64,000 nt of DNA from a virus. Shown piece after piece: positions 2,254 to 47,956 of the stretch. The DNA lies in IMG/VR virus record IMGVR_UViG_3300044695_003767, one strand, 5' to 3'. Made by a program: the position numbers and the translations under genes. The notes beneath the pieces are model-generated. The model was not told where the DNA came from. It searched no databases and worked only from the letters and a program-made list of their open reading frames with translations. How positions within the stretch are numbered: the stretch's first letter is position 1; each line of letters begins with the position of its first letter.

Positions 2254-2907
2254 ATGAGTATTCTTATATCATTACCTTGTTATGGTGGATTAGTGAATGA
2301 AAAAACCACAACATCACTGTTTAATCTTGGTAAACTTTTAGTTCGCAATAATATAGATCACGGCATAATGACTGTCGCAAATGAGTCTTTGATTACTCAC
2401 GGACGGTCAAGAATTGCTAATTTCTTTATGAATAATACTGAGTTTGAGTATCTGTTCTGTCTGGATGCTGATGTTGCCTTTTCGCCAGAAGATATGTTGA
2501 AGTTATATTCGTATCAAAAACCAATCGTGTCTGCATCATATCCTATGAAGACACTACCAATACGACACTGTTATGAACTTTATAATCCTGTAAAGTTATG
2601 TGGAAATCTTGTGAAGATTGGTGGAATTGGTATGGGATTTGTATTAATTCATAGAAGTGTCTTTGAGAAACTAAATAATCATTATAGTGAATTAAAGTAT
2701 TTTCCGGGATTGAATAATTCAAACTATCCAATTACTGAAAAAGAATATCATAATTCATATCACTACTTTGCAGAAATGAATAAGGAAGGAAAATACTTGG
2801 GAGAAGATATGAGTTTCTTTCATCGTGTCAGTGATATTGGTTATGATGTTTGGTTGGATACAAGTATAGAATTACAGCACATCGGTTCTCACGTATTCGG
2901 TAAGTAA
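2254..2907 (+). CDS. GT-A fold glycosyltransferase-like protein
   Basis: DxD motif (CLDADV), GMGFVLIHR, GEDMSFF, terminal H-x-G. Confidence 0.7.
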   Translation: MSILISLPCYGGLVNEKTTTSLFNLGKLLVRNNIDHGIMTVANESLITHGRSRIANFFMNNTEFEYLFCLDADVAFSPEDMLKLYSYQKPIVSASYPMKTLPIRHCYELYNPVKLCGNLVKIGGIGMGFVLIHRSVFEKLNNHYSELKYFPGLNNSNYPITEKEYHNSYHYFAEMNKEGKYLGEDMSFFHRVSDIGYDVWLDTSIELQHIGSHVFGK

Positions 2908-2908
2908 A

Positions 2909-4783
2909 ATGGCAATTGGAGTATTTGGTCTACAAGTTGCTTACAGATTAAAGAGACTTGAGGTGATGAGTGTTGATGATACTCACGGATGGTTTGGTGG
3001 TGGTTTTCCAGCACTATTAACAGTAGACCGTATAGATTTTTCTAATGATACTGGAACTACAAACATTAGAGGTTCATTAAGTGTAGGAAGAAGTGCTGCG
3101 GGAGCAACAGGAAACTCTAACTATGGTTGGTTTGGTGGTGGTAATTCTCCAGGAGTATTATCATCAGTAGATAGAGTAGATTTTTCCAATGATTCTCCAG
3201 CAGTATCAGTAAGAGGTCCATTAAGTTTAGCAAGAGATGGAGTATCAGCAACAGGAAACTCTAACTATGGTTGGTTTGGTGGTGGATTTGGTGTAAGTAG
3301 TAGATCAATTGTAGACCGTATAGATTTCTCTAATGATTCTTCCACGGCATCACCAAGAGGTCCATTAAGTTCATCAAGATATAGTGGAGCGTCAACAGGA
3401 AACTCTAACTATGGTTGGATTTCTGGTGGGCAAAATCCAACACTATTTTCAACAGTAGACCGTATAGATTTTGCAAATGATTCTTCAACGGCATCACCAA
3501 GAAGTCCATTGAGTTCAGCAAGAAGTTCTTTATCAGCAACAGGAAACTCTAATTATGGTTGGTTTGGCGGTGGTACTACTCCAGGACCAGTAGTAGCAAC
3601 AGTAGACCGTATAGATTTCTCAAATGATTCTGTATCAGTATCAGTAAGGGGTTCATTATTTACGGCAAGATATGGTTTAGCAGCAACAGGAAACTCTAAC
3701 TATGGTTGGTTCGGTGGTGGTTCTATTAGTGGACCAGGAGTATCAACAGTAGACCGTATAGATTTCTCTAATGATTCAGTATCAGCATCACCAAGAGGAC
3801 CATTAAGTTTAGCAAGACAAGGTTTAGCATCAACATCGGGACAAGCAAAAGGACCAGCAATCAAACTGCAAAAAGCAGGGAATTATGGTTGGTTTGGTGG
3901 TGGTGGACCATCACTTGCGGGGGGTGCAACTGCAACAGTAGATCGTATAGATTTTTCTAATGATTTGGCAACAGCATCACCAAGAGGTTCATTAAGTAAA
4001 ACAAAATCTCAAATATCAGCAACAGGAAATTCTAACTATGGTTGGTTTGGTAGTGGTATTACTACACCACCAACACCAGCAACAGTATCAACAGTAGACC
4101 GTATAGATTTTTCTAATGATTTGGCAACAGCATCAGTTAGAGGTATATTAAGTTCAACAAGATATGCTTTAGCAGCAACAGGAAACTCTAACTATGGTTG
4201 GTTTGGTGGTGGTGGTCTTAATCCGCCAATAACATCAATAGTGGACCGTATCAATTTTTCAAATGATTTAGAAACAGCATCACCTAGAGGTTCATTAACT
4301 CAAACAAGATTTAGATTAGCAGCAACAGGAAATTCTAACTATGGTTGGTTTGGTGGTGGTAGAGGTGGTTCTCCAATATCAACAGTAGCAACAGTAGACC
4401 GTATAGATTTTTCCAATGATTCTGCAACAGCATCACCAAGAGGTCCATTAAGTGCTGCAAGATATTCTTTAGCAGCAACAGGAAACTCTAACTATGGTTG
4501 GTTTGGTGGTGGTGCTTTTCCAGCAAAAGCAACAGTGGACCGTATAGATTTCTCTAATGATTCCACAACGACATCAGTTAGAGGTCCATTAAGTTCGGCA
4601 AGATATCATTTATCGGCAACAGGAAACTCTAATTATGGTTGGTTTGGTGCAGGTCTTTCACCAGCACAAGTATCAACAGCAGATCGTATAAACTTTTCAA
4701 ATGATTCTGTGTCAGCATCAATTAGAGGATTACTTGGGACAAAAACCTTCTTCTATGGAGCAACCTCCAACAGCACCAAATAA
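2909..4783 (+). CDS. Kelch-like double beta-propeller protein 1 (12 repeats)
   Basis: 12 copies of ~47-aa YGWFGGG-x(n)-VDRIDFSND-x4-PRGPLSxAR-xx-LAATGNSN, with a linker after repeat 6. Confidence 0.8.
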   Translation: MAIGVFGLQVAYRLKRLEVMSVDDTHGWFGGGFPALLTVDRIDFSNDTGTTNIRGSLSVGRSAAGATGNSNYGWFGGGNSPGVLSSVDRVDFSNDSPAVSVRGPLSLARDGVSATGNSNYGWFGGGFGVSSRSIVDRIDFSNDSSTASPRGPLSSSRYSGASTGNSNYGWISGGQNPTLFSTVDRIDFANDSSTASPRSPLSSARSSLSATGNSNYGWFGGGTTPGPVVATVDRIDFSNDSVSVSVRGSLFTARYGLAATGNSNYGWFGGGSISGPGVSTVDRIDFSNDSVSASPRGPLSLARQGLASTSGQAKGPAIKLQKAGNYGWFGGGGPSLAGGATATVDRIDFSNDLATASPRGSLSKTKSQISATGNSNYGWFGSGITTPPTPATVSTVDRIDFSNDLATASVRGILSSTRYALAATGNSNYGWFGGGGLNPPITSIVDRINFSNDLETASPRGSLTQTRFRLAATGNSNYGWFGGGRGGSPISTVATVDRIDFSNDSATASPRGPLSAARYSLAATGNSNYGWFGGGAFPAKATVDRIDFSNDSTTTSVRGPLSSARYHLSATGNSNYGWFGAGLSPAQVSTADRINFSNDSVSASIRGLLGTKTFFYGATSNSTK

Positions 4784-4799
4784 ATAACTCAAACTACAT
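4781..4799 (+). promoter_or_regulatory. T4-type late promoter plus leader (TAAATAACTCAAACTACAT)
   Basis: ATAAATA late -10 element; 18/19 identical to 12117-12135. Confidence 0.55.
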
Positions 4800-4807
4800 C
4801 ATTTCTT

Positions 4808-5419
4808 ATGAAGCAGAATATTATTATTGTTGATAATTTCTATGAGAATCCATATGAAGTTCGTCAATACGCATTAAATCTGGAGTATCCACAACCACAA
4901 GACGGATATACCTATCCAGGTAGAAACTCAAAAGGAACTTTTTATAATCAAGAGATTCACGATAAGTTTGAGAATTTAATTGGAAGACATTTAGTTCCTG
5001 CTGATTGTGGTAATCATGGAGATTTTAGATTATCATTAGAAGCAGATACATTCCAACAAGACATTCATATTGACCCAATCTGGGAATGGGGTTGTGTTCT
5101 TTACATGAATCTACCGCATCAGTGTATTGATGAGGCAGGAACATCATTCTGGAAACATAAGAAACTGGGGTGGGAAAGAGTTCCAGAACAACAAGAAGCA
5201 GGTTGGTTTGGTTATACTTCTTATGATGAAATCCGTGATGGTATTGTGTATGGTGATGGACTTGACCGTTCTAAGTGGGAGAGATACTGTTTGGCAAATA
5301 TGAAGTATAATAGAGCAGTCATCTTTGACCCAAAACTCTGGCACTCACACGGAGCAAACTTTGGAGATAGTTTAGAAAATGGTAGATTAGTTCAATTGTT
5401 CTTCTTTAATAATGCATAA
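4808..5419 (+). CDS. 2OG-Fe(II) oxygenase-like protein (DUF6445-like)
   Basis: IVDNFYENP..VR..AL N-terminus, HID, WHS and RLVQLFF, matching the HxD...H...R pattern. Confidence 0.7.
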   Translation: MKQNIIIVDNFYENPYEVRQYALNLEYPQPQDGYTYPGRNSKGTFYNQEIHDKFENLIGRHLVPADCGNHGDFRLSLEADTFQQDIHIDPIWEWGCVLYMNLPHQCIDEAGTSFWKHKKLGWERVPEQQEAGWFGYTSYDEIRDGIVYGDGLDRSKWERYCLANMKYNRAVIFDPKLWHSHGANFGDSLENGRLVQLFFFNNA

Positions 5420-6242
5420 GACTTATTTTTTTGAGAGTGGATTGCCACGTTCTGGTTCTACATTACTTTCTGCAATTCTAAATCAAAATCCAGATATTCA
5501 CTGCGGTGCAATTTCTCCTGTGCTGGAGATTATGTATTATACAGAGCAATACTTTGAAGGGTCGGAGCAGGCACTTGCATATCCAAAACCAGAGCAACAT
5601 CATAAGATTATTTCAAGTGTGATTGATAATTATTATGATGATATTGATAAACCAATCGTAGTGGATAAATGCCGTGCCTGGACTAATAACACCGATAGAA
5701 TACAAGAATACATTACAAAGACTCCAAAGATTCTGTGCCCTGTGAGAGATGTTGTAGAGATTCTTGCATCGTTTATTCAAATGATTCATCGCAATTCCAA
5801 TCAAGTATCTTTTGTAGATAAGGCACTCACAGAACAAGGATATGAACTGACTGATGATAATCGGTGCGACCATCTAATGTCTCCCGTAGGTATTGTAGAC
5901 CAGTCCTTATATGCCTTTGGAGAGGGGTTCAGAAAGGGTTGTGAGAGGTATATGCATATGATTGAGTATAATGACTTGGTAAATTGTCCAGAAGAAACGA
6001 TGCACAAGGTTTATAAGTTCTTAGAGATTCCCGAATACAAACACGACTTTGGTAATGTCAGTCATAAATACCGTGAGAGAGATAATGATATTTACGGACT
6101 AAGTGATATGCACGAAGTTCGTAAGCAAGTAAAAAGAACTTCTAAAAGACCTGAAGAAGTTTTAAGTGATTATGTATTGAATAAGTATTCTGGTATGGAA
6201 TTTTGGAGAAAGGCAAAACCACCAATTAGTTTGTTCATATAA
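5412..6242 (+). CDS. Sulfotransferase (P-loop, PAPS-dependent)
   Basis: 5'-PSB GLPRSGSTLL; DKCRAW; RDVVEILASF; YNDLV..PEETM. Confidence 0.85.
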   Translation: MHKTYFFESGLPRSGSTLLSAILNQNPDIHCGAISPVLEIMYYTEQYFEGSEQALAYPKPEQHHKIISSVIDNYYDDIDKPIVVDKCRAWTNNTDRIQEYITKTPKILCPVRDVVEILASFIQMIHRNSNQVSFVDKALTEQGYELTDDNRCDHLMSPVGIVDQSLYAFGEGFRKGCERYMHMIEYNDLVNCPEETMHKVYKFLEIPEYKHDFGNVSHKYRERDNDIYGLSDMHEVRKQVKRTSKRPEEVLSDYVLNKYSGMEFWRKAKPPISLFI

Positions 6243-6246
6243 GTAA

Positions 6247-8130
6247 ATGACAATCAATAATAACAATATATTTGGAGCATTTACACTTGGAGAAGTTCGT
6301 AGTGGACGACTGACTGGTGAATGGTTAAATAAAGAATCCGTTGCGAATTATGGTTGGTTTGGTGGTGGTTATAATAGTATTGCAACAGTAGATCGTATAG
6401 ATTTCTCCAATGATTCTTCCACGGCATCACCAAGAGGTTCATTAAGTTCGGGAAGACATGGTTTAGCAGCAACAGGAAACTCTAACTACGGTTGGTTTGG
6501 TGGTGGTGTTATTCCTGCAAGATCACTTTCTACAGTAGATCGTATAGACTTTTCTAATGATTCTCCAACTGCATCAATTAGAGGTTCATTAAGTTCAGCA
6601 AGATATTACTTAGCAGCAACAGGAAACTCTAACTATGGTTGGTTTGGTGGTGGTTTCCCTGGTCCAAGATCAATAGTAGACCGTATAGATTTCTCTAATG
6701 ATGCAGCAACAGCATCACCTAGAGGATCATTAAGTTTAGCAAGATATAATTTAGCAGCAACAGGAAACTCCAATTATGGTTGGTTTGGTGGTGGAAATCC
6801 AGGGTTTACATCAACAGTAGACCGTATAGATCTTTCTAATGATTCTGGAACAGCATCACCAAGAGGTCCATTAAGTTCGGCAAGATATAGTTTAGCAGCA
6901 ACAGGAAACTCTAACTATGGTTGGTTCGGTGGTGGTGGACCTAGTTCTACACCAGGACCATTATCAAGAGTAGATCGTATTGATTTCTCTAATGATTCTT
7001 CAACAGCATCAGTAAGAGGTCCATTAACTTTAGAAAGAACTCGATTGGCGGCAACAGGAAACTCTAATTATGGTTGGTTTGGTGGTGGTTATAATACAGT
7101 TACTAGGAGTACAGTAGACCGTATAGATTTTTCTAATGATTCTGTATCAGCATCATTAAGGGGTTCATTAAATCCTGCAGGAAAAACAACACACACAGCA
7201 ACCTCAGGAGTTCTCAATATTCGCAGACAAAAAGCAGGGAATTATGGTTGGTTTGGTGGTGGTTTTCCATCAGCAGACAGAGTAGACCGTATAGATTTTT
7301 CTAATGATTCCGCAACAGCATCAGTTAGAGGTCCATTAAGTTCAGCAAGATATAGATTAGCAGCAACAGGAAACTCTAACTACGGTTGGTTTGGTGGTGG
7401 TAGAGCAGGATCTCCAATAGCAAATACATCAAGAGTAGACCGTATTAATTTCGCAAATGATTCTCCATCAGCATCAGTAAGAGGACCATTAAGTTTAGCA
7501 AGATCTAGTATGGGTGCAACAGGAAATTCTAACTATGGTTGGTTCGGTGGTGGTGGTACTCCATCAGTAGTAGCAACGGTACATCGCATAGATTTCTCAA
7601 ATGATTCTTCAACCGCATCAACAAAAGGTCCATTAAGTTCCGGAAGATATACTCCAGGAGCAACAGGAAACTCTAACTACGGTTGGTTTGGTGGTGGATT
7701 TGTTTCATCTCCGACACCATCTTATGTAACAACAGTAGACCGTATAGATTTCTCTAATGATTCTTCAACCGCATCACCAAGAGGTCCATTAAGTTCAGCA
7801 AGATATGGTTTAGCAGCAACAGGAAACTCTAACTATGGTTGGTTTGGTGGTGGTTATGCTCCTACAACAGTTAGATCAACAGTAGACCGTATAGATTTCT
7901 CCAATGATTCCTCAACAACATCAGTAAGAGGTCCATTAAGTTCAGCAAGATATAGATTAGCAGCAACAGGAAACTCTAACTACGGTTGGTTTGGTGGTGG
8001 TGATCCTGGACCATTATCAACAGTAGACCGTATCAATTTTGCAAATGATTCTGCAACAGCATCACCAAGAGGTTCATTATTTACAACAAAATATTCTTCA
8101 GCAGCAACCTCCAACACCCCAATAGGATAA
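6247..8130 (+). CDS. Kelch-like double beta-propeller protein 2 (12 repeats)
   Basis: Same 12-repeat, 6+6 architecture with QKAGNYGWF linker; ends SNTPIG. Confidence 0.8.
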   Translation: MTINNNNIFGAFTLGEVRSGRLTGEWLNKESVANYGWFGGGYNSIATVDRIDFSNDSSTASPRGSLSSGRHGLAATGNSNYGWFGGGVIPARSLSTVDRIDFSNDSPTASIRGSLSSARYYLAATGNSNYGWFGGGFPGPRSIVDRIDFSNDAATASPRGSLSLARYNLAATGNSNYGWFGGGNPGFTSTVDRIDLSNDSGTASPRGPLSSARYSLAATGNSNYGWFGGGGPSSTPGPLSRVDRIDFSNDSSTASVRGPLTLERTRLAATGNSNYGWFGGGYNTVTRSTVDRIDFSNDSVSASLRGSLNPAGKTTHTATSGVLNIRRQKAGNYGWFGGGFPSADRVDRIDFSNDSATASVRGPLSSARYRLAATGNSNYGWFGGGRAGSPIANTSRVDRINFANDSPSASVRGPLSLARSSMGATGNSNYGWFGGGGTPSVVATVHRIDFSNDSSTASTKGPLSSGRYTPGATGNSNYGWFGGGFVSSPTPSYVTTVDRIDFSNDSSTASPRGPLSSARYGLAATGNSNYGWFGGGYAPTTVRSTVDRIDFSNDSSTTSVRGPLSSARYRLAATGNSNYGWFGGGDPGPLSTVDRINFANDSATASPRGSLFTTKYSSAATSNTPIG

Positions 8131-8133
8131 AAT

Positions 8134-9867
8134 ATGAAATCAGGAGCAAGTGAAAGTTCTTATTTTTTTCTTGAAGAATATTATAAGTTTCCAGAAAACA
8201 TTATAGTTTCTCATTTACCACAAGAACTTCAACAATCAAATAAACCAATCAAAGTATTATGGTCGCAACATTCTTACGACCAACCAGTTTATCTTAACTT
8301 TGATTTTTCAATTTGTGATTTAATTGTCTCTCCATCCAACTGGTGTAGAGAACAATTCATTAAGTATCATCATATCCCAGAGAATAAAATTGTCACAATT
8401 CCAACAGGAGTATCAAAGCAATTTACATACTCATCAAGAAAATCAAAGACATTTATCTATACTTCCATACCATATAAAGGTCTTGAGGTATTAGCACAAA
8501 TCATTCCTCATATTCCAGAGGCAACATTCAAGATTTTCTCTGCGATGAATCTTTATGATATTCAAGAAGACCCATACACAGAACTTTATGAATATCTTAA
8601 ATCACTTCCAAATGTCGTCTACTCACCAGCAGTAGACCAAGCAGAACTCATAGAGCACTTACAGGATGCTGCATTCTTTATTCATCCAAATATTTGGGAG
8701 GAAACATTCTGTGTTTCATTAGCAGAAGCAATGTCTTGTGGATGCTTTCCAATTCTTACAGATATTGGAGCACTTCCAGAAGTATCAAATGAGATTGCAA
8801 ATATTGTTCCTATGGAAGGTATAAGAACCACCAAAGGATATGAAGTCACAGACAACTTCCTAAATAACTTTATAGATGCCTGTAAATCTGCAGTATATTT
8901 CTTTGATAATGACAGGCAGTACTACGACCAAATTTCACAATCTGTTTCACATTATGCTACTGAAACTTATGATTGGAAAAAAATTGCAAACGTTTGGAAA
9001 CAAACATTAGAACCATTTAGTAAACAAACTATGACTGAAAATTGTAACCAACTGCAAATTATTTCCCCAGAGGAAGCAGTAAGTAACGAAGAGTATTTAC
9101 AACAGGCATTTCAAGAAGTGCTTCGTTGGGAAGAAGCAGACAAAGAACTGGCACAAGGAAGAACTAATTTTCAGATTGAGAAGTTCTTTCTGTTAGAGCA
9201 ATATACAGTTCCTGCAGCATTTCAGGCAGCAATTAAGAATCGTCGTATTCTTGCCGAAGGTTATATGCAGAAACTGATTGAGATGAAAGAAAAGGTTCGT
9301 GAGTTTGAGTATCGTTGGAAAGGTAAGAATACTGATGAACCCGTAGAGTGGCATACTTCTGGACCGAATGGTGGTTCCACAAAACTCTATTGGTATGATT
9401 TGGATTCAATCTCAACTCAAAACTATTTGAAGTCTTGTGAGTTGGAAATTCGTGACCGCATTCAGCAGATGAATTTCTTTGATAAGATTATTAATCGTCT
9501 GATTGAACTAAATGGTGGTAAGACAGTTACTAGAGAACAGTTTGAAGCAGAAGATCACGTTTATTGGGAACGTCGTTTTGCAGAGCAATCTCTGGATGAA
9601 ATGGTAAGTTCCAAGACTGGTATTAGTATTGGTAATCTCCACTCAATGAGAAGAGGAACTGCACCTACTCTTGTAAGTGATGATACAAATAGAATCAAGA
9701 ATGGTTATGGTTCACTTGCCGATGCAATTAATGACCCTGATAGATTCTTGAATACTCTGCAAGAGAAAGTTCTTCGTGGTATTGAAGAAGTGACGAATAC
9801 TGATTTAGGTTTGCTTGCACCTGGAACAGAACAACATCAACAACTTTTAGAATCCAGAAACTCATAA
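8134..9867 (+). CDS. GT-B (GT4-like) glycosyltransferase fused to an uncharacterised helical C-terminal domain
   Basis: YTSIPYKGL, HPNIWEETFCVSLAEAMSCG (Ex7E), TDIGALPE; second domain from ~9031. Confidence 0.8.
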   Translation: MKSGASESSYFFLEEYYKFPENIIVSHLPQELQQSNKPIKVLWSQHSYDQPVYLNFDFSICDLIVSPSNWCREQFIKYHHIPENKIVTIPTGVSKQFTYSSRKSKTFIYTSIPYKGLEVLAQIIPHIPEATFKIFSAMNLYDIQEDPYTELYEYLKSLPNVVYSPAVDQAELIEHLQDAAFFIHPNIWEETFCVSLAEAMSCGCFPILTDIGALPEVSNEIANIVPMEGIRTTKGYEVTDNFLNNFIDACKSAVYFFDNDRQYYDQISQSVSHYATETYDWKKIANVWKQTLEPFSKQTMTENCNQLQIISPEEAVSNEEYLQQAFQEVLRWEEADKELAQGRTNFQIEKFFLLEQYTVPAAFQAAIKNRRILAEGYMQKLIEMKEKVREFEYRWKGKNTDEPVEWHTSGPNGGSTKLYWYDLDSISTQNYLKSCELEIRDRIQQMNFFDKIINRLIELNGGKTVTREQFEAEDHVYWERRFAEQSLDEMVSSKTGISIGNLHSMRRGTAPTLVSDDTNRIKNGYGSLADAINDPDRFLNTLQEKVLRGIEEVTNTDLGLLAPGTEQHQQLLESRNS

Positions 9868-9878
9868 GGAGAAAGTAG

Positions 9879-12119
9879 ATGCCAGCAGGAGACGTATTTG
9901 GTCTTGATGGATTTTTTCTAAACGTATCAAATCCCATTACGGTTTCTGCTGTAGATATTAACTCTACTGCTGCTGGTGCCGGTATTACTGTAACTGCTGG
10001 TTCTTTTAGTTCTGGAACAGTCACTCTTACACTTTCAACTGCTGCTGGTCTTTCTACAACACCTTTTTATACTGGTGCAAAGATAGCAGTTTCTGGTCTC
10101 GCAATCGCATCAGGAGTAGCACATACTGGATATAATGGAAATTTTGTAGTCACAGGATTTGCAGGAACCACAACAGTTTCTTATGCGACTACTGGTTATG
10201 TTGGTCCTGTGACTGCTGGTATTACCACAACTGGTTTGGTAATGTTAGTGACTGATACTGCAGTTACGAATACCACTTGGAGTAGTTCTCAAACTCACGG
10301 TTGGTTCGGTGGTGGACAATCTCCATCAACAGGATTTTCAACAGTAGACCGCATAGATTTCTCCAATGATACTGGAACTGCAAATATTAGAGGTTCATTA
10401 AGTTCAGCAAGAAATGAGTTAGCAGCAACAGGAAACTCTAACTATGGTTGGTTTGGTGGTGGATATGTTCCAGTAGCATATTCAACAGTAGACCGTATAG
10501 ATTTCTCTAATGATTCTTCAACGGCATCACCTAGAGGTCCATTGAGTCGTACTAGATATCGTTTAGCAGCAACAAGTAACAGTTCTTATGGTTGGTTTGG
10601 TGGTGGTGAATTCTCACCATTTGTATTATCAACAGTAGACCGTATAGATTTCTCTAATGATTCTGGAACAGCATCAGTCAGAGGTCCATTAAGTTTTGCT
10701 GCGAATATATTAGCAGCAACAGGAAACTCTAACTATGGTTGGTTTGGTGGTGGTAATACTCCAGGAGTATTATCATCAGTAGGTCGTATAGATTATGCTA
10801 ATGATGCAGCAACAGCATCACCTAGAGGTCCATTAAGTTCAGCAAGAAGAGATTTAGCAGCAACAAGTAACAGTTCTTATGGTTGGTTTGGTGGTGGTTT
10901 TCCTGGTCCAGGAGTATTATCAAGAGTAGACCGTATAGATTTTTCTAATGATTCTTCAACGGCATCAGTAAGAGGTTCATTAAGTTCAGCAAGAAATCTT
11001 TTAGCAGCAACAGGAAACTCTAATTATGGTTGGTTTGGTGGTGGTACTGGTGGTTCTGGTGCAATATCAAGAGTAGACCGCATAGATTTTTCTAATGATT
11101 CCACAACAACATCACCAAGAGGTCCATTAAGTTCATCAAGATATCGTTTAGCAGCAACATCAGGGCAGGCAAGGTCTTCAAGTATTCGTCTACAAAAAGC
11201 AGGGAATTATGGTTGGTTTGGTGGTGGAAGTTCTGGGGGAGCACCATTTACTGGATACTCAACAGTAGATCGTATAGATTTCTCAAATGATTCCTCAACA
11301 GCATCACCAAGAGGTTCATTGATTGCAACAAAATATATAAAAGCAGCAACAGGAAACTCTAACTATGGTTGGTTTGGTGGACAATTCATCACTCCTACAC
11401 CAGGAAGAGCATCAACAGTAGACCGTATAAATTTCTCCAATGATTCTGCAACACCACTAATTAGAGGTTCATTGAGTTCAGCAAAAAATAATGTAGCAGC
11501 AACAGGAAATTATAATTATGGGTGGTTTGGTGGTGGATATCCGGGATCTGTTGGAACAGCAGCAGTAGACCGTATAAATTTTTCTAATGATGAATTAACA
11601 GCATCATCAAGAGGACCATTGAGTTCAGCAAAATATAATTCTGCAGCAACAGGAAATTATAATTATGGGTGGTTTTCTGGTGGAACTATTCAACCATCAC
11701 CTGCACTTCCACCGGTTAATTTATCATCAACAGACCGTATAGATTTCTCTAATGATTCTGCAACAGCATCACCAAGAGGTCTATTAAGTTTAGCAAGAGG
11801 AGGTTTAGCAGCAACAGGAAACTCTAACTATGGTTGGTTTGGTGGTGGTAGTGGACCAATATCAACAGTAGACCGTATAGATTTTTCAAATGATTCTGCA
11901 ACAGCAACTGTTAGAGGTCCATTAAATGGAGTAAGATCTCTTCTAGCAGCAACAGGAAACTCTAACTATGGATGGTTTGGTGGTGGTATTTCTCCTGGAG
12001 GAACATCAACAGTGCATCGATTAGATTTCTCTAACGATTCTGTATCAGCATCACCAAGGGGTCTATTAAGTCAGGCAAGATCATTATTAGCAGCAACAGC
12101 CAATACACCAATAGGATAA
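9879..12119 (+). CDS. Kelch-like double beta-propeller protein 3 (12 repeats, extra N-terminal beta domain)
   Basis: ~140-aa N-terminal domain (GYNGNFVVT), then 12 repeats; ends ANTPIG. Confidence 0.8.
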   Translation: MPAGDVFGLDGFFLNVSNPITVSAVDINSTAAGAGITVTAGSFSSGTVTLTLSTAAGLSTTPFYTGAKIAVSGLAIASGVAHTGYNGNFVVTGFAGTTTVSYATTGYVGPVTAGITTTGLVMLVTDTAVTNTTWSSSQTHGWFGGGQSPSTGFSTVDRIDFSNDTGTANIRGSLSSARNELAATGNSNYGWFGGGYVPVAYSTVDRIDFSNDSSTASPRGPLSRTRYRLAATSNSSYGWFGGGEFSPFVLSTVDRIDFSNDSGTASVRGPLSFAANILAATGNSNYGWFGGGNTPGVLSSVGRIDYANDAATASPRGPLSSARRDLAATSNSSYGWFGGGFPGPGVLSRVDRIDFSNDSSTASVRGSLSSARNLLAATGNSNYGWFGGGTGGSGAISRVDRIDFSNDSTTTSPRGPLSSSRYRLAATSGQARSSSIRLQKAGNYGWFGGGSSGGAPFTGYSTVDRIDFSNDSSTASPRGSLIATKYIKAATGNSNYGWFGGQFITPTPGRASTVDRINFSNDSATPLIRGSLSSAKNNVAATGNYNYGWFGGGYPGSVGTAAVDRINFSNDELTASSRGPLSSAKYNSAATGNYNYGWFSGGTIQPSPALPPVNLSSTDRIDFSNDSATASPRGLLSLARGGLAATGNSNYGWFGGGSGPISTVDRIDFSNDSATATVRGPLNGVRSLLAATGNSNYGWFGGGISPGGTSTVHRLDFSNDSVSASPRGLLSQARSLLAATANTPIG

Positions 12120-12143
12120 ATACCTCAAACTACATTATAAGCA

Positions 12144-12794
12144 ATGAATTTATTATCCAAAGTTTTGATTGCACCAAAAGTCATCAATCAGGAAGGTATT
12201 GATGCACTGGTAAATCATATGAAAACTTCAAAAACAGAAGACCTTTCAGTATTTGATCCAGACAAATCCAATCAGACACGAGGAACTGAATGGATTACAG
12301 ATAAGAAAACAAGAGATACTCAAATTGCTCCAATTGAACCTGTATTTCCACAGGTTAACGAATTGATGCATCATATTGTAAAGCAAGTTATCAATCCTTT
12401 TTATCAGTTTGAAGTTGATAGTTCAGAAGTTCCACAACTACTCTGCTATGGTGTAGGAGGACACTACCAACCTCATATTGATGGTGAAGGTATATGGACT
12501 GCACCAGATCAGACACAACTTTGGAGAAAGACAGTAGATCGTGATTTGTCTATGGTCTTATATTTGAATGATGGATTTGAAGGTGGAGATTTTGTATTTC
12601 CAGACCTTCATATTCATATTCGTCCTGAACCTGGACTTCTTGTATGTTTTCCTTCTAATAGGTATTATCGTCACGGTGTTGAACCAGTCACCAAAGGAAA
12701 CCGATATTCAATGGTAACTTGGATGACAGTCAAAGGATTTGAGAGTATGGAGACACAATGCAATAATCTCAAATCTAAATATGGGGTGTGTTGA
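12144..12794 (+). CDS. 2OG-Fe(II) oxygenase, prolyl-4-hydroxylase-like
   Basis: YGVGGHYQPHID, SMVLYLNDGFEGGDF, HGVEPVTKGNRYSMVTW. Confidence 0.85.
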   Translation: MNLLSKVLIAPKVINQEGIDALVNHMKTSKTEDLSVFDPDKSNQTRGTEWITDKKTRDTQIAPIEPVFPQVNELMHHIVKQVINPFYQFEVDSSEVPQLLCYGVGGHYQPHIDGEGIWTAPDQTQLWRKTVDRDLSMVLYLNDGFEGGDFVFPDLHIHIRPEPGLLVCFPSNRYYRHGVEPVTKGNRYSMVTWMTVKGFESMETQCNNLKSKYGVC

Positions 12795-12819
12795 CAAAAA
12801 CTTTTAATTACCCTATAAT
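12791..12819 (+). promoter_or_regulatory. Sigma70-type promoter
   Basis: TTGACA-N17-TATAAT, perfect consensus. Confidence 0.85.
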
Positions 12820-12825
12820 ATCCAA

Positions 12826-12923
12826 GTCTTCAACATCCTTGTAACTTTGGGAATGAAGACCCTCTCTGTGGTGGGAGAGGTGAGTTGGTGGTTACTAAGG
12901 AGGGTTTATATCCTCCTTTTTTT
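12826..12923 (+). ncRNA. Candidate stand-alone structured small RNA (~95 nt)
   Basis: Lies between a perfect promoter and a terminator; hairpins GTCTTCA/TGAAGAC and CCTCTC/GAGAGG; possible GTAAC/GTTAC pseudoknot. Confidence 0.55.
12897..12923 (+). terminator. Rho-independent terminator
   Basis: AAGGAGG...CCTCCTT followed by a T run. Confidence 0.75.
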
Positions 12924-12957: not shown

Positions 12958-13200
12958 ATGAATTTCACAGTATACTCAAAAGAAGATTGCCCATATTGCT
13001 ATAAAGTTAAACAAGTTCTTGAATTGACAGGAAGTAACTTTGTGGTTTATAATTTAGGGGAACATTTTACCAGAGATGAGTTTTATGCTGAGTTTGGTGA
13101 AGGATCTACCTTTCCACAGGTTATTTGTAATGACAAGAAATTAGGAGGATCAGTTGACACAATCAAATTCCTCAAGGAACAACAAATCATCAAATCCTGA
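12958..13200 (+). CDS. nrdC: Glutaredoxin
   Basis: CPYC active site, TFPQV, GG motif. Confidence 0.9.
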   Translation: MNFTVYSKEDCPYCYKVKQVLELTGSNFVVYNLGEHFTRDEFYAEFGEGSTFPQVICNDKKLGGSVDTIKFLKEQQIIKS

Positions 13201-18964: not shown

Positions 18965-19888
18965 ATGTCTTTTGCTGACCTTAAGAAGCAATCTAAACTT
19001 GGCAATCTTACTGCCAAATTGGTTAAAGAAGTTGAAAAAATGAATACAAGCAGCGGTTCTTCTGATGACCGTCTGTGGAAACTGGATGTAGATAAGAGTG
19101 GCAATGGTTATGCCGTCATCCGTTTCCTCCCTGCTCCGAACGGTGAGGACCTTCCGTTCGTGAAACTCTACAGTCACGCATTCCAAGGTCCTGGTGGTTG
19201 GTATATTGAGAATTCTCTGACTACTCTCAATCAGAAAGATCCCGTGTCGGAACTGAACTCTGAACTGTGGAACAATGGTACTGATGCTGGCAAAGAACTG
19301 GCACGTAAGCAAAAACGTAAACTGACTTACGTTTCCAACATCTACGTTGTGAAGGATCCTGCTAACCCTTCCAACGAAGGTAAGGTCTTCCTGTACAAGT
19401 TTGGTAAGAAGATCTTCGACAAACTGACTGCTGCGATGCAACCTGAGTTTGAAGATGAAGAAGCAATCGATCCGTTTGACTTCTGGCAAGGTGCCAACTT
19501 TAAACTGAAGGCAAAGAACGTTGCTGGTTATCGCAACTATGATTCCAGTGAGTTTGCCGCACAAGGTGCTCTGCTGGACGATGATGATGCAATGGAAGCA
19601 ATCTGGAAGAAGCAATATTCTCTTGCTGAACTGGTTGCTGCTGATCAGTTCAAGTCTTATGATGAACTGAAGAAGCGTCTTGACTATGTGCTGGGTTCCA
19701 AAGGTTCCCGCCGTGTGGATGAAGAAGTTGCTGAAGAGGAAGAGTATTCCCGTGGTCCTGCGAAAGAATTGACTGAAGATCTTCGCAGTGAACTCAACAA
19801 TCTTCAACCCACCCGTCGTGCTGTTGCGGTTGAAGAAGATGAGGATGATGATGCCCTGTCCTACTTTGCCCGTCTTGCCGAAGAGTGA
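18965..19888 (+). CDS. gp32: Single-stranded DNA-binding protein
   Basis: GNGYAVIRFLPA, HAFQGPGGWYIENSLTT, FGKKIFDK, FDFWQGANFKLK, acidic tail. Confidence 0.97.
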   Translation: MSFADLKKQSKLGNLTAKLVKEVEKMNTSSGSSDDRLWKLDVDKSGNGYAVIRFLPAPNGEDLPFVKLYSHAFQGPGGWYIENSLTTLNQKDPVSELNSELWNNGTDAGKELARKQKRKLTYVSNIYVVKDPANPSNEGKVFLYKFGKKIFDKLTAAMQPEFEDEEAIDPFDFWQGANFKLKAKNVAGYRNYDSSEFAAQGALLDDDDAMEAIWKKQYSLAELVAADQFKSYDELKKRLDYVLGSKGSRRVDEEVAEEEEYSRGPAKELTEDLRSELNNLQPTRRAVAVEEDEDDDALSYFARLAEE

Positions 19889-20502
19889 AGTCAGATTACA
19901 CTATTAACCGTGTAAATAAGTCCGAAGCCGCAGAGTTACTTCTGCGGTTTCATTATCTTAAGGACTTTTCAAAAGGTTTTAAATCTGGGTATAACTACGG
20001 TCTTTATAAAAATAATGACTTCTGCCCATTGAATATTGGTGGTATTCAGGGAGTCTGTGTGTTTACAGGACTCCCTGTTCCTGAAATTGCTCAAGGTGCT
20101 TTTGGATTAGAAAGAAATGAACAACAAGGACTTTTTGAACTTTCCAGATTATGCATCCACCCAGACACACAATCTGGCGAACATAATATCACTTCTTGGT
20201 TTGTTTCAAGATCGATTAGACAGTTACGGAAGGATACTGAAGTTAAAGCAATCATCTCTTACGCTGATAGTGATTTCCATAATGGTACAATCTATCGTGC
20301 TTGTAACTTTAAATATTGCGGACTCACAGACCCAAAGAAAGATTTCTACTATGCAGACGGAACTAAACACTCTAGAGGCAAAATTAAAGGTGCTGCAGGA
20401 GAATGGAAAGAACGCTCCCGCAAGCACCGATATGTGATGATGTTTGATAAGAGTTTAGAACTCTTATGGCATAGTGATCCTGGTATTTTCAGTTCGGATT
20501 AA
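19885..20502 (+). CDS. Mom-like (GNAT-fold) DNA modification protein
   Basis: FHYL, ELSRLC, ISYADS..H.GTIYRACNF. Confidence 0.7.
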   Translation: MKSDYTINRVNKSEAAELLLRFHYLKDFSKGFKSGYNYGLYKNNDFCPLNIGGIQGVCVFTGLPVPEIAQGAFGLERNEQQGLFELSRLCIHPDTQSGEHNITSWFVSRSIRQLRKDTEVKAIISYADSDFHNGTIYRACNFKYCGLTDPKKDFYYADGTKHSRGKIKGAAGEWKERSRKHRYVMMFDKSLELLWHSDPGIFSSD

Positions 20503-37573: not shown

Positions 37574-40500
37574 ATGCCTCTTAATAAGTTAGATAATTTT
37601 ATCAAGAATACTGAAGGTCGTATTCTTTATGTAAGTCCAAGTGATCTTGATTCAACAGACAGTATTGATAATCAGGGTAATTCTCTTGCCAGACCCTTTA
37701 AAACAGTTCAGAGAGCACTTTTAGAGGCTGCAAGATTTTCATATGTGAAGGGTGATGATAATGATATTACAGAAAAAACAACAATTTTACTTCTTCCTGG
37801 TGAGCACATAATTGATAATAGACCAGGTTTTAGACTTTACAATGATGCAGGGACTGCTAAAGTCGTATCACCAGATTCGAGTATTGGTGTAACAAATCCA
37901 ACTGCAACTGCAGCTTTAAGTTTATCACTTTCTTCTAATTTTGATTTAACTCAACTTGATAATATCCTATACAAGTTTAATAGTATTTACGGTGGTGTTA
38001 TCGTACCTAGAGGTGTATCGATAGTTGGTTTAGACCTTAGAAAGACAAAGATTCGTCCTAAGTATGTACCAAACCCAACAGACTCATCAGCATCTAAAAC
38101 TGCTATTTTTAGACTCACCGGTGCTTGTTACTTATGGCAGTTTTCTTTCTTTGATGCTAGAGAAAGTGAATTAGCATATACAAATCCAACAGATTTTACT
38201 GATACAGCAAAACCAACATTTTCCCACCACAAAGTAACGTGTTTTGAATATTGTGATGGTGTAAACAAATATGCTAATACTGGTCTTACAGACCTTGATA
38301 TGTATTATGCAAAATTATCTCACGCATATGGCACTAGTGCTGGTACGAGAGAAATTGATCAAAAATATCCAACTGATGCTGGTGGGTTTGCAAAACAACG
38401 TCCAGAATGGGAAATTGTTGGTGCTTTTGATAGTGATGTAATTCCTGTTTCTGCAATTAGTATTAGCTCTTCTGGTAGCAATTTAGTTACAGTCACAACA
38501 TCAGTTCCTCACGAATTTAATGAAGGAACTCCAATCAAGGTTAGAAATGTAATTCCAGTAGATTACAATATTTCCACAAAAGTTCAAACAGTTTTAAGTG
38601 ATACTAAATTTACTTATTTGATTCCTAATGCAAGACGAGATCTTGACTTAAATGGCAATGCTTCTTCTGCAACTGTAGTTATTGAAACTGATACTGTTTC
38701 TGGTGCTTCTCCTTATATCTTCAACATCTCTATGCGTTCTGTATGGGGTATGAACGGAATGCACGCTGATGGTGCAAAGGCTTCTGGTTTCCGTTCAATG
38801 GTTGTTGCCCAATTTACGGGTGTTTCTCTGCAAAAAGATGATCGTGCTTTTGTAAAATACTTCCAAGATTCTAGAAAGTATATTGGAATTGATGTAACTA
38901 AAGTAACAGGATCGGAATTATCTGGTCGATCTTCATCTACAGATCCTGGGACTGCATTCCACCTAGATCCTGCAGCAATTTACCGAAATGGTTGGGAGTC
39001 TTCTCACATTAAGGCATCGAATGATTCATTTATTCAGGTCGTATCTGTATTCGCAATTGGATTTACTAAACATTTTGATGGAGAATCTGGTGCAGACTAC
39101 AGTATTACAAACTCTAACTCTAACTTTGGACAAATTTCTCTAAATGGTGATGGTTTTAAAGCAGAAGCATTTGATAAAGATAATAATTTATTCCTGACAA
39201 ATATTGTTACACCCAAATCTATTGTAGGAACGCCAAAAACCGTTGACTGGATTTCACTTGATGTTGGAGTTACAACTACTGTCGGTGTATCAACTCGACT
39301 CTATCTGTTTGGATTTAAATCTCAAGATGATATTCCACCAGTTTTAACTCAAGGATATCGCATTGGTGGCGCAGTAAATGATAAGTTGTATGTGACAATA
39401 AACAATGTCGAATATTCGGCAGACATTGTGATGTCTGATGGAGTGACTAGTAGTGTAAAAGATTACACAGTATCAACTGTCAATAATAATAGATTTACAC
39501 TAAGTAGTGCTCATACTCTAGAGAATACAGAAAAAGTTACATTACAGAGTTTAAGTGGAGATCTTCCTGAAAATATTACCGAGCACACTGTTTATTATGC
39601 AATTACTTCTAGCATTAATGCTACTCGAACAGATGGTATAACGTTATCATCAACTCAGATTCAACTTGCAACTTCTCAGGCAGATGCAAGTCTTGGTATT
39701 CCCGTTACAATTTATGGTGGTAAAGATCTTAAACTTTTAAGTAGAGTTCACGATAAACAAGCTGGAGATATTGGGCATTCTGTTCAGTTTGATTCTACGA
39801 ATAAGCAATGGTTTATTACTGTAAAATCAACAAACAATACAATCTATAGTCAACTTGCTGCTTTAGGTGTCGGTGGATATCAAGCTAGAACTGATCCATC
39901 GTATATTAAGAGGATTCCAGATACAAGAAGTTTGGATGAAAAATTATATAAACTTAGAGTTGTCATTCCAAAAGAACTTTTGGGTGCAAAAGCTCCAGAA
40001 CCTGGATTTATTATTCAAGAGAGTAGTACAACTGGTGCAAGAAATGATTCCGATTTCCTTCTTCCAACTACCAGGAATCTAAATTATTTTGACTACAATT
40101 ATAGTAAAAATCCAAGATTAATTGCAAGTTGCTCAAGATCTACTGCAGTTAATGGAGTTTATACTGTAACAGTTGTAAGTGAAACCCCTCACGATCTCCA
40201 AGTTGGCAATAGCATTAAAATTTATAATGTAAAAGATTCTACTCTTAATCCATTTGGTGAATATGGATATGGGTATAATGGAAAGTTTTCCGTAAAATCT
40301 GTAGTAAACGATATGGCGTTTACTTATGATATTGTATCTGGAGTATCAACAAACGCAACATTCCCAACTACAAGAGGAACTTCTTGGCCAAGATTTGAGA
40401 AAAATGATGTAAAAAATAACTTTGTTGTTTATCGCAGTGTTGTTATTTCTGAATATGCGGAAGGTCAAAGAGATGGTGTTTATCATCTGTTTGTTATAAA

Positions 40501-46160: not shown

Positions 46161-46163
46161 TAC

Positions 46164-46192
46164 TTGACATAATCCTCAAATACCACTAGACT
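46164..46192 (+). promoter_or_regulatory. Sigma70 promoter
   Basis: TTGACA-N17-TAGACT. Confidence 0.6.
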
Positions 46193-46222
46193 ACCTTTGT
46201 CTGGGTTGGAGATGAGGCTCTA

Positions 46223-46279
46223 GGCCACTTTAAGAACCGTCACAGGACCCCTCACAGGGTCCTGTTTTTGCTGTATAAT
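46223..46279 (+). promoter_or_regulatory. Operator-hairpin-TATAAT promoter module
   Basis: GGCCACTT-N4-AACCGTCACA, hairpin CAGGACCC/GGGTCCTG plus T run, TATAAT 29 nt after the motif. Confidence 0.65.
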
Positions 46280-46292
46280 ATTCCTATATTCA

Positions 46293-47528
46293 ATGAGACC
46301 TGTGATTCAACTCCGTCCACACCAAGAACGTGCTCTGGATGCTCTTGTCAAGTATCAGAAAGGTCAAGTCATCATTCCGACTGGTGGTGGTAAGACCAAC
46401 GTTGCTATCTTTGATGCTTTGCGTGAGTTTCAATCTGATGCTCCTAAGACCATTGTAGTGGTTGCTCCTCGCATTCTACTTGCTGAGCAACTTTCTAGTG
46501 AGTTTCTTGAGTTTATCACCACTGCTGCTGTTCTTCACGTTCACAGTGGTGAGACGCATCACCAGAGCACCACTAAACCTGCTGAGATTCATAACTGGTC
46601 TCTTCGTGCTTATAAGCATCAACTGATTTTCACTACCTACAACTCCCTGCAACGTCTGCAACAGGCAGATCTTAAGGTTGATACGATTTACTTTGATGAG
46701 GCACACAACAGTGTTCAACGTCACTTTTTCCCTGCTACGGAGCACTTCTCTTCTACTGCTGACCGCTGCTATTTCTTCACTGCTACTCCTAAGCATTCTG
46801 CTACTATTTCCAAACCTGGGATGAATGATGGTGCAGTGTATGGTCAGGTGATCTGCAATGTGCCAGCACCTGAACTTGTTGAGGGTGGTTTCATTGTGCC
46901 CCCTAAGGTTGTGGTGCAGCAGTTTGAGATGCTGGGTAAGGGTCAAATCGTTGCTGATGTTGACTGTGAGAATCTGATTCAGACCATCGATGCTCAAGAT
47001 GTGGGTAAGGTTCTGATTTGCTCCAAGGCAACTAAGCAGATTCAGAATCTGGTTTCTCAGACTGATTTTTGCACTCAACTGGAGGATCGTGGTTATTCTT
47101 GGATGTATATTACTGCCAAGACTGGTGCCGTGATTGATGGTCGTAAGGTCAACCGTGAGGTATTCTTTGACACTCTCTCTGCTTGGGGCAAGGATGACTC
47201 TAAGAAGTTCGTTGTTCTTCACCACAGCATCCTGAGCGAAGGCATTAACGTTTCTGGACTGGAGGCAGTGCTGTTTATGCGGTCTATGGACTACATTGGG
47301 ATCTCCCAGACCATCGGACGGGTGATCCGTCTCCACAAGGACGACGCAGAGGGTCTCAGCAGTGGCAGGATTGCCCCTGGTGCCCTTGCAGACTACACCA
47401 AGTCGTTTGGACTGGTCTGCATCCCTGTCTACTCTTCTGTGGGCATCAGCACCGCAAAGAAGGTGCAAGCAGTGGTCGATACGGTGTTCAATCAAGGTCT
47501 CCCTGCCATCAGCGTTGTCAAACGTTGA
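46293..47528 (+). CDS. SF2 DEAH helicase (type III restriction Res-like)
   Basis: LRPHQ, PTGGGKT, FDEAH, FTATP, LSEGINV, QTIGRVIR. Confidence 0.9.
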   Translation: MRPVIQLRPHQERALDALVKYQKGQVIIPTGGGKTNVAIFDALREFQSDAPKTIVVVAPRILLAEQLSSEFLEFITTAAVLHVHSGETHHQSTTKPAEIHNWSLRAYKHQLIFTTYNSLQRLQQADLKVDTIYFDEAHNSVQRHFFPATEHFSSTADRCYFFTATPKHSATISKPGMNDGAVYGQVICNVPAPELVEGGFIVPPKVVVQQFEMLGKGQIVADVDCENLIQTIDAQDVGKVLICSKATKQIQNLVSQTDFCTQLEDRGYSWMYITAKTGAVIDGRKVNREVFFDTLSAWGKDDSKKFVVLHHSILSEGINVSGLEAVLFMRSMDYIGISQTIGRVIRLHKDDAEGLSSGRIAPGALADYTKSFGLVCIPVYSSVGISTAKKVQAVVDTVFNQGLPAISVVKR

Positions 47529-47568
47529 TTTTTCTGCTAAACTACTTACACACAAGGAGGAATCCCCA

Positions 47569-47706
47569 ATGCGTTGCAAAGTCGAACTCTATGTTGCTGG
47601 TAAAGTGTTCTATGAGCACGTTGAAGCACGGGACTATCAGGATGCCAAACGTACTGCAATTGCACGTAATCCAACAGCAAAAGTGGTCAGTGTGACTGCC
47701 GTATGA
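47569..47706 (+). CDS. Hypothetical protein (45 aa)
   Basis: AGGAGG RBS; MRCKVELYVAGKVF...ARNPTAKVV. Confidence 0.65.
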   Translation: MRCKVELYVAGKVFYEHVEARDYQDAKRTAIARNPTAKVVSVTAV

Positions 47707-47924: not shown

Positions 47925-47956
47925 ACTCGTTAAATAGTATAACTGTCCTACACATT

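Follow-up and report, generated by a model that had tools for sequence, protein, structure and literature searches.

We analysed a 64,000-nucleotide (nt) stretch of viral DNA (IMG/VR record IMGVR_UViG_3300044695_003767; referred to here as the window), whose gene content is that of a T4-like phage, and found that positions 2254-12794 carry a conserved, widespread and uncharacterised phage module in which genes for three predicted double beta-propellers are interleaved with genes for five enzymes. In the explanation we prefer, to which we give an even chance of being right, the propellers belong to the fibres or the phage surface, and they or adjacent fibre proteins are modified by the soluble enzymes encoded next to them. 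The module consists of eight co-directional, nearly abutting genes on the + strand, right after fibre-like structural genes, in the order GT-A glycosyltransferase, propeller 1, DUF6445 oxygenase, sulfotransferase, propeller 2, GT4 fusion protein, propeller 3 and an oxygenase resembling prolyl 4-hydroxylases (P4H). This gene order and the positions of the genes, as given in the original prediction, were confirmed. The enzyme families named there were borne out as well, by Pfam for the sulfotransferase (Sulfotransfer_3), the GT4 protein and the P4H-like oxygenase (2OG-FeII_Oxy_3), and for the GT-A protein by an invariant DxD motif and a profile match to the glycosyltransferase A197 of STIV.

The three repeat proteins are propeller 1 (P0001; 2909-4783, 624 amino acids (aa); phrog_19111, E 4e-137), propeller 2 (P0002; 6247-8130, 627 aa) and propeller 3 (P0003; 9879-12119, 746 aa), the last of which has a 139-aa Thr/Gly/Val-rich domain N-terminal to its repeats. 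Each holds exactly twelve Kelch-type repeats, arranged as six units, a linker ending in QKAGN and six further units, in agreement with the earlier count. The 36 units, 46-61 aa long with a Y-G-W-F-G-G-G core, fit Kelch repeats of 44-56 aa with their GG doublet and conserved aromatics. Among the Pfam Kelch models, Kelch_4 passed its cut-off in P0003 (23.2 vs 21.6; E 6.6e-5), Kelch_3 fell below its cut-off in P0001 (18.5 vs 22), and none matched P0002. Pfam matches to FAM183 on all three propellers contained no significant stretch and were discarded as compositional artefacts. An AlphaFold2 model of P0002 built with 60 homologues (mean predicted local distance difference test score (pLDDT) 71) has 48 strands, forming twelve blades, the number that had been proposed, of four strands each, with disorder confined to the N-terminus and the linker. 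Foldseek aligned the model to the six-bladed Keap1 Kelch domain with a target-normalised template modelling (TM) score of 0.9 and a root-mean-square deviation of 2.2 Å over ~300 columns (E 1.7e-17), and also to designed symmetric Kelch proteins. On this model, each repeat protein is predicted to be two six-bladed Kelch-type propellers. The strands follow one another as A (LAATG), B (YGWFGG), C (VDRIDF) and D (ASxRGxL), which makes the variable loop the B-C loop; in Keap1 structures, the B-C loops together with the D-A loops form the peptide/ligand-binding face. The likeness to Keap1 and the KLHL proteins thus covers the four-stranded blades, the GG doublet ending strand B, the variable B-C loop and the predicted fold. 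Unlike these proteins, however, the window propellers are in tandem and without BTB/BACK domains, their blades are 76% identical to each other, and their identity to Keap1 is 18%.

Between units, the scaffold has 76% identity in amino acids and 82% in nucleotides, and codons for identical residues differ in only 18%, which points to concerted evolution as well as selection. The loops behave differently: across 59 homologues, their identity to the query is 16%, vs 75% for the scaffold. Proline was found in 32 of the 36 loops (11, 10 and 11 in the three proteins), exactly as had been counted before, where simple arithmetic (~8 variable residues per loop, 4-5% Pro) would expect it in ~30% of them. 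Among 1113 loops from 120 homologues, 85% contain Pro, and the overall composition is 17.5% Thr, 15.4% Ser, 13.8% Pro and 9.7% Ala, with Asp, Glu and Lys together at ~2%. This neutral, Pro/Thr/Ser-rich make-up would place the loops closer to O-glycosylated regions of the mucin or Pro/Thr/Ser-rich type than to typical binding loops. The propellers also have in common, across lineages and including those of the cultured Synechococcus phage S-SKS1, a short N-terminal motif (V/I-F-G-L/A ... W), which may be a docking peptide. A potential N-glycosylation sequon in the C-D turn (N-D-S or N-E-T) was dropped from consideration, as the repeats of one related lineage (L053-type) have no Asn at this place.

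The P4H-like oxygenase (12144-12794, 216 aa) scores 63.8 bits against PF13640, whose cut-off is 27 (E 2.9e-17), and its iron triad and basic residue (H111-x-D113, H177 and R187) are invariant in eight orthologues. Its matches in the PDB include P3H1, the P4H of Bacillus anthracis and the collagen P4H alpha-2 (E ~2e-7). All solved structures that it matches are either prolyl 3-/4-hydroxylases or PKHD-type hydroxylases (PiuC/Sbal_3634), and the latter, whose substrate is unknown, score almost as high as the prolyl hydroxylases; no match of the TET/JBP or AlkB type was obtained. For the DUF6445 protein (4808-5419, 203 aa; PF20043, E 3e-13), which had been called a second oxygenase, the call stands in part. 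Its H87-x-D89, H179/H181 and R193 are invariant, in the HxD...H...R pattern of such enzymes, and an automatic Atlas cluster name, 'Phytanoyl-CoA dioxygenase family', provides a lead only. On the other side, PDB sequence and profile searches returned no match, and the comparison with the P4H-like family by hhalign was not significant. We regard the protein as a probable PhyH-like 2-oxoglutarate (2OG)-Fe(II) oxygenase on the motif and the cluster name.

The sulfotransferase (5412-6242, 276 aa; PF13469, E 1.7e-15) is of the type that uses 3'-phosphoadenosine 5'-phosphosulfate (PAPS). Its 5'-phosphosulfate-binding (PSB) motif, GLPRSGSTLL, is invariant and aligns to GVPRSGTTL of TPST1. The closest proteins in the PDB are the tyrosylprotein sulfotransferases TPST1/2 (E 4e-7 for the protein alone, 3e-9 as a profile), followed by CurM-type sulfotransferases. 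Judged by sequence similarity, both the P4H-like oxygenase and the sulfotransferase are closest, among solved structures, to protein-modifying enzymes. In the close propeller family, a Tyr follows the D-A-loop Arg in 34% of the blades, and the matches to TPSTs alone had raised the idea that this 'ARY' tyrosine is sulfated. We set this idea aside, as the Tyr is unconserved in distant lineages and the catalytic Glu of TPSTs is missing, and for the same two reasons the enzyme is not assigned as a TPST.

Two glycosyltransferases complete the enzyme set. The GT-A protein (2254-2907, 217 aa; phrog_1574, phrog_34859) has an invariant D71-A-D73 as its DxD motif, and its profile matches STIV A197 at E 1.4e-7. 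The 577-aa fusion protein (8134-9867) begins with a GT4 domain of the GT-B fold (8134-9030; phrog_2170) that exceeds the cut-offs of both Glyco_trans_1_4 (43.2 bits vs 27; E 6e-11) and Glycos_transf_1 (40.0 vs 26.4; E 4e-10), with family matches to transferases of the exopolysaccharide (EPS) and glycogen type. The C-terminal domain of the fusion (9031-9867) has no Pfam or Atlas match and is modelled by AlphaFold2 as long helical hairpins (pLDDT 63), for which Foldseek gave a non-significant resemblance to prefoldin-like proteins. The same domain is a stand-alone open reading frame (ORF) in S-SKS1, in a close relative of the window (L050, 278 aa) and in other loci. In this close relative, the GT4 domain is fused instead to a domain with a VDIGAHSGYF... 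motif (L050:12678-15062), which by its motif is a putative FkbM-like methyltransferase. None of the five enzymes contains a membrane-type hydrophobic segment.

The neighbourhood survey revealed a strong linkage, tolerant of rearrangement, of the propellers with the P4H-like oxygenase, the glycosyltransferases and the sulfotransferase. The module occurs in >100 viral contigs, and the set is retained in at least six different gene orders. A search anchored on the propeller recovered 46 IMG/VR loci in which the module is present with conserved synteny. In close relatives, the order of the whole cluster is unchanged, the enzymes being 93-98% identical vs 60-70% for the propellers; loci of more distant relationship, whose enzymes are 50-64% identical, retain the set in other arrangements. 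A search anchored on the sulfotransferase returned at least 550 viral loci, the best 80 of which were analysed; a propeller lies within 10 kb in 52 of these, and homologues of the P4H-like and GT4 genes, like close ones of GT-A, are confined to these 52 loci. In 75 of the 82 loci that have both genes, the P4H-like gene begins <400 nt downstream of where a propeller gene ends. Adjacency to a propeller gene was also the rule for the sulfotransferase (65/72 loci), DUF6445 (33/35), GT-A (40/49) and GT4 (52/69), in counts where the two locus sets overlap and some contigs are counted twice. The propeller family itself comprises >1000 metagenomic proteins at E ≤ 1e-3, many of them on contigs of 190-250 kb, and a scan of 185,579 prokaryotic species genomes gave only two tiny contigs from metagenome-assembled genomes (MAGs), so that the family is in effect phage-only. 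On each of these two contigs, CAYOEM010000060.1 (2152 bp, 'Polynucleobacter' MAG) and one of 521 bp from a Verrucomicrobiota MAG (L129 and L130), the propeller gene stands alone. Both are most likely phage DNA mis-binned into MAGs, and they hint that the lineage of the window is a freshwater one. The most distant propeller lineage (L101/L066) looks different: one record (IMGVR_UViG_3300005512_000094, L101:2906-20646) has a tandem array of ~10 paralogous genes for single six-blade propellers of 342-393 aa, most of which begin with a motif like IRFNTDS..LE.Y.G.W, interspersed with Laminin_G_3/carbohydrate-binding module (CBM) proteins, a sulfotransferase and a GT-A-like gene, with a PF13640 oxygenase at the end on the opposite strand.

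Part of the enzyme set was also found where there are no propellers. In one group of phages (L092-type; IMGVR_UViG_3300031963_000065, L092:182-12749), a sulfotransferase 50% identical to that of the window, a GT-A-like gene and DUF6445 flank two collagen-repeat proteins, one of 2285 aa (E 1e-67 to Pfam Collagen) and one of 453 aa (E 7e-38), together with a GT2-methyltransferase fusion and a UDP-galactopyranose mutase (Glf). One of the two proteins has an end that may be intramolecular-chaperone-like, and the other presumably carries a tail-collar-like motif; on that reading, the pair would be collagen-like tail fibres. With related enzymes beside collagen-type and beside propeller genes, part of the enzyme kit therefore accompanies repetitive fibre proteins of two unrelated kinds, and its place beside collagen-like tail fibres fits a modification of co-encoded fibre proteins. 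The collagen triplets here are GAQ and GST, nearly Pro-free, and the 85-kb record contains no PF13640 oxygenase; as far as this single comparison goes, it is the Pro-bearing kind of fibre that the P4H-like member accompanies. Matches to 'collagen' by regular expression within propeller loci were discounted, since they are at least partly off-frame artefacts and only the L092 match was verified with Pfam.

The genes around the module place it among structural genes of the tail. Immediately upstream lie the C-terminal part of a virion structural protein that extends beyond the window start (1-630, + strand; phrog_5838, E 1e-61) and a 538-aa Gly/Ser/Thr/Val-rich fibre-like protein (634-2250, + strand), which by tblastn matches N-terminal segments of annotated tail fibre proteins of the Synechococcus phages S-SRM01, SynMITS9220M01 and DSL-LC02. 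The C-terminal part of this protein recurs 5' of the GT-A gene in many related loci, including 28 of the 80 sulfotransferase-anchored ones. Close DNA relatives of the region were not found by megablast against 50,697 phage records; relatives appeared only at the protein level, in S-SKS1 and two single-virus genomes. S-SKS1 (Llyrvirus), the nearest cultured phage by protein similarity, matches the window in order, from tail fibre and baseplate genes through repeat proteins, 2OG oxygenases and sulfotransferase to nrdC, thymidylate synthase, exonuclease, gp33, gp59 and gp32. We thus have before us the host-recognition/fibre region of a T4-type cyanophage resembling S-SKS1, and it corresponds to the "host recognition cluster" of cyano- and pelagimyophages described by Zaragoza-Solas et al. 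(PMC7029224). In the S-SKS1 record, the P4H-like gene is broken into two overlapping ORFs, SWZG_00286 and SWZG_00285, the repeat gene SWZG_00289 finishes in out-of-frame sequence, and the repeat genes span the record ends (L001:6226-6887, L001:1663-3060). The broken genes are probably frameshift errors or real pseudogenes.

We propose that the propellers would be late-expressed fibre or virion-surface proteins serving adhesion or receptor binding, and that the adjacent enzymes would act on them, perhaps also on the fibre-like protein next to them, while still in the infected cell's cytoplasm before assembly. Residues of the loops would be hydroxylated, and for the P4H-like enzyme Pro is the obvious candidate among them; the glycosyltransferases of the module would carry out O-glycosylation and the sulfotransferase would sulfate a sugar or a hydroxyl group, possibly in this order. 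The outcome would be a sulfated glycoprotein surface made by the phage itself. The sharper form of this proposal, close to what the original prediction had put forward, is a complete cytoplasmic line of loop Pro hydroxylation, O-glycosylation and sulfation on the hypervariable face of the propellers, with the same line acting on the collagen-like tail fibres of sister lineages; this specific chemistry we consider unlikely. In its favour are the linkage of the module, the kinship of the enzymes with prolyl hydroxylases and TPSTs, and the presence of the kit beside collagen-like fibres. What did not hold is the support drawn from the Pro count and, for the sulfation step, the catalytic machinery of TPSTs, as detailed in the following.

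Several observations weigh against modification of the propellers, in its general or in its sharper form. Pro near position +3 after the GG doublet (GGxxP) is conserved even in repeat families only 27-45% identical to those of the window, and the loop Pro may be structural; because GGxxP is found across the superfamily, the 32 Pro-containing loops by themselves are no evidence of hydroxylation sites. The catalytic Glu of TPSTs is not conserved: in the HMMER alignment, G-E-E-T of TPST1 faces g-a-i-s of the phage family, and the column of the catalytic Glu, which we take to be E99 of human TPST2 in the GEET segment after the PSB loop, is occupied by I, V, S or N in eight orthologues. Propellers of the L085 and L066 types lack the D-A-loop Tyr, although their loci keep the sulfotransferase. 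Searches of Pfam, NCBIfam and the PDB gave generic GT-A and GT4 matches only and no homology to a known hydroxyproline (Hyp)-specific glycosyltransferase, with no comparison aimed at GT60 or HPAT enzymes. The FkbM-like domain fused to GT4 in the close relative, on its motif reading, and the UDP-galactopyranose mutase of the collagen-type loci also fit the synthesis of free glycans. As to the linkage, a maximum-likelihood tree of 63 sulfotransferases shows no more than two changes of the propeller label (the independent-pairs test, with two pairs, is underpowered), and the co-occurrence therefore mostly reflects one module that was inherited and reshuffled, not many independent gains. Every propeller lineage examined has a PF13640 oxygenase nearby, leaving no P4H-free lineage as a control. 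The L101/L066 lineage had seemed to be such a control by tblastn, and was ruled out when a Pfam-level search detected PF13640 at the array end in all four of its records. PF13640 oxygenases are, moreover, common in cyanophages generally (PMC3037559), and their mere presence therefore weighs less. Finally, the virion location of the propellers is predicted from gene context only.

The alternative that survives best, which we consider possible though on the unlikely side, is that the enzymes remodel glycans of the host envelope, such as the O-chain of lipopolysaccharide, EPS or the S-layer, and that the propellers are unmodified, lectin-like receptor binders. The remodelling would block superinfection or keep progeny off debris, and propellers and enzymes would be linked only through the same host glycan. 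Highly self-similar blades such as those seen here are typical of beta-propeller lectins, and the contrast between fast-evolving propellers and constant enzymes is what receptor-binding proteins should show. The EPS/glycogen-type matches of the GT4 domain, and the FkbM-like methyltransferase (again by motif) and Glf of related loci, point in the same direction. A published study reads the glycosyltransferases that cyano- and pelagimyophages encode in their host-recognition cluster in this way, too (PMC7029224). The module, however, encodes no flippase, polymerase, priming transferase or membrane protein, and its P4H-like oxygenase and sulfotransferase are nearest to enzymes that modify proteins. 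Nor does action on the host envelope account well for a P4H-like gene that is nearly always directly 3' of a propeller gene, and a related kit beside collagen-like tail fibres is easier to explain with the fibres as substrates.

If fibre proteins are the substrates, these could be the 538-aa fibre-like protein or other fibres, with the propellers serving as unmodified distal binding domains or assembly partners. This explanation, which we judge improbable, is consistent with the recurrence of the C-terminal part of the fibre-like protein beside GT-A, with the Ser/Thr/Gly-rich composition of that protein and with the fibres found as partners in the collagen-type loci. It is opposed by the position of the enzyme genes, which adjoin the propeller genes more tightly than they do the fibre-like gene, and by several fully flanked loci that keep propeller and enzymes and in which no homologue of the fibre-like protein was detected.

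Two further possibilities appear to us very improbable. The propellers could be intracellular substrate adaptors or decoys like the Kelch proteins of poxviruses, with the enzymes as unrelated cargo of a hypervariable island, given that Kelch domains are classic protein-interaction modules and that the virion location of the propellers is only predicted; against this, the propellers are encoded 3' of fibre genes within a block of co-directional structural genes, show no BTB or other adaptor domain in Pfam, occur as 3-10 paralogues with hypervariable loops beside Laminin_G/CBM proteins, which is a receptor-binding pattern, and have 'virion structural proteins' of jumbo phages among their structural neighbours. 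That the enzymes work on a small molecule or on DNA, by synthesis or modification, yielding a secondary metabolite or hypermodified bases, has equally slim prospects: metabolite synthesis was proposed by Iyer et al. for tandem dioxygenase arrays in cyanophages (PMC2938197), DNA repair roles were suggested by Weigele and Sullivan (PMC3037559), and genes for ThyX and a Mom-like protein are present 3-7 kb downstream, but the oxygenase matches are to the P4H and PKHD types, the module has no nonribosomal peptide synthetase, polyketide synthase or halogenase, and the tight adjacency to repeat-protein genes across lineages would be left without explanation.

Modification of the propellers or of adjacent fibres by the enzymes encoded next to them would have partial precedents. 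We know of no sulfated phage virion protein. Chlorovirus PBCV-1 has a P4H, and its capsid is glycosylated by viral glycosyltransferases; L230 of Mimivirus is a collagen hydroxylase/glycosyltransferase; and mycobacteriophage virions are O-glycosylated, as Freeman and colleagues reportedly described in 2023. In these systems, parts of virion proteins that are repetitive or rich in Ser/Thr/Pro are modified in the cytoplasm of the host by hydroxylases and/or glycosyltransferases of the virus, which is what we propose here from genes alone. None of them, unlike the window, joins a hydroxylase, glycosyltransferases and a sulfotransferase with beta-propeller substrates. Hydroxylation of Pro followed by O-glycosylation of Hyp is established for Skp1 of Dictyostelium and Toxoplasma and for plant extensins and arabinogalactan proteins, and the Skp1 pathway is cytoplasmic, as proposed for the phage. 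The likeness lies in a P4H followed by a GT-A-fold transferase that acts on Hyp in Ser/Thr/Pro contexts. The phage proposal differs in having many acceptor sites instead of one and in adding sulfation, which is outside those pathways, and no homology of the phage enzymes to Gnt1 (GT60) or HPAT/Hyp-GALT was detected, in searches that included no targeted comparison.

The closest published idea is that of Iyer, Abhiman, de Souza and Aravind in 2010, who described bacterial beta-hydroxylase and PhyH-type dioxygenases and sulfotransferases beside collagen-like or tail-collar proteins and predicted, as a prediction only, that these proteins are hydroxylated and then sulfated (PMC2938197). As in those neighbourhoods, the window has PF13640, DUF6445 (PhyH-like, as a lead only) and PF13469 in one block beside a repetitive fibre-type protein, and the L092-type loci, with collagen-like tail fibres, sulfotransferase and DUF6445, match the published pattern closely. 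The window departs from it in that the partner is a double Kelch propeller and not, as in the L092-type loci, a collagen-like or tail-collar protein, that two glycosyltransferases are constant members, and that the setting is a lytic T4-like cyanophage. Propellers as virion components also have counterparts. A Kelch protein (CBB_552) is present in virions of phage CBB (PMC5259590), a TolB-like beta-propeller protein and a prolyl-hydroxylase-like oxygenase were identified in the proteome of virions of the cyanomyovirus S-SCSM2R (PMC12801897), and the structural neighbours of the window propeller include 'virion structural proteins' of PhiPA3 and Noxifer. All of these are documented or annotated virion components; they belong to other sequence families, with no dedicated set of adjacent enzymes reported.

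The heptamer ATAAATA, which resembles the late promoters of T4, lies 5' of both oxygenase genes on the + strand, each time over the stop codon of the preceding propeller gene: at 4780-4786, 21 nt 5' of the DUF6445 start codon, and at 12116-12122, 5' of the P4H-like gene. It is unenriched across the window (16 observed vs 23.7 expected), making this weak evidence. The one clear terminator, a hairpin with a 9-bp stem and a T tract that scores best on the + strand (12897-12918), follows and closes the co-directional block, just 3' of a perfect sigma-70 promoter at 12791. It is the first of two perfect TTGACA-N17/18-TATAAT promoters immediately 3' of the module (12791-12923 and 13024-13053) and, with the terminator ~80 nt further on, may give rise to a short non-coding transcript. 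Downstream of the module, the window encodes thyX, phoH, an exonuclease, gp59, gp32, baseplate gp53/gp48, a tube protein, gp26, a tape-measure-like protein, a gp5-like protein and fibre proteins. We also observed a gene for a Mom-like DNA modification protein (19885-20502; phrog_1384, E 9e-34), flanked by gp32 on one side and the baseplate genes on the other, an ORF of 1946 aa in the fibre/baseplate region (37574-43414), and a rise in GC content up to 0.45 at 46001-48000, over a helicase-like ORF carrying a long antisense ORF.

The roles of cyanophage 2OG-Fe(II) oxygenases have been guessed at since 2007-2010, with DNA repair, drainage of 2OG and metabolite synthesis among the suggestions (PMC3037559, PMC2938197), and the role of phage sulfotransferases was called unclear in 2023 (PMC10580990). 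The hydroxylation and sulfation of fibres was already predicted in 2010 and virion glycosylation by virus-encoded enzymes is known; what is added here is a concrete candidate substrate for the oxygenases and sulfotransferases of cyanophages. The module links P4H-like and PhyH-like oxygenases, a sulfotransferase and two glycosyltransferases to a specific and abundant class of candidate substrates, and the cultured relative S-SKS1, whose host is Synechococcus WH7803, makes the question testable. If the enzymes act on the host envelope instead, their tight pairing with lectin-like propellers would still provide a handle on receptor biology. Were the full line of Pro hydroxylation, glycosylation and sulfation to be true, no bacteriophage before it would have had a virion surface of sulfated glycoprotein, the Skp1/extensin chemistry would have a counterpart in a prokaryotic virus, and the line would give a function to the long-unexplained 2OG oxygenases and sulfotransferases of cyanophages. 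Fibres that are hydroxylated, glycosylated and sulfated would change the view of host range, adsorption and particle stickiness in aquatic phages.

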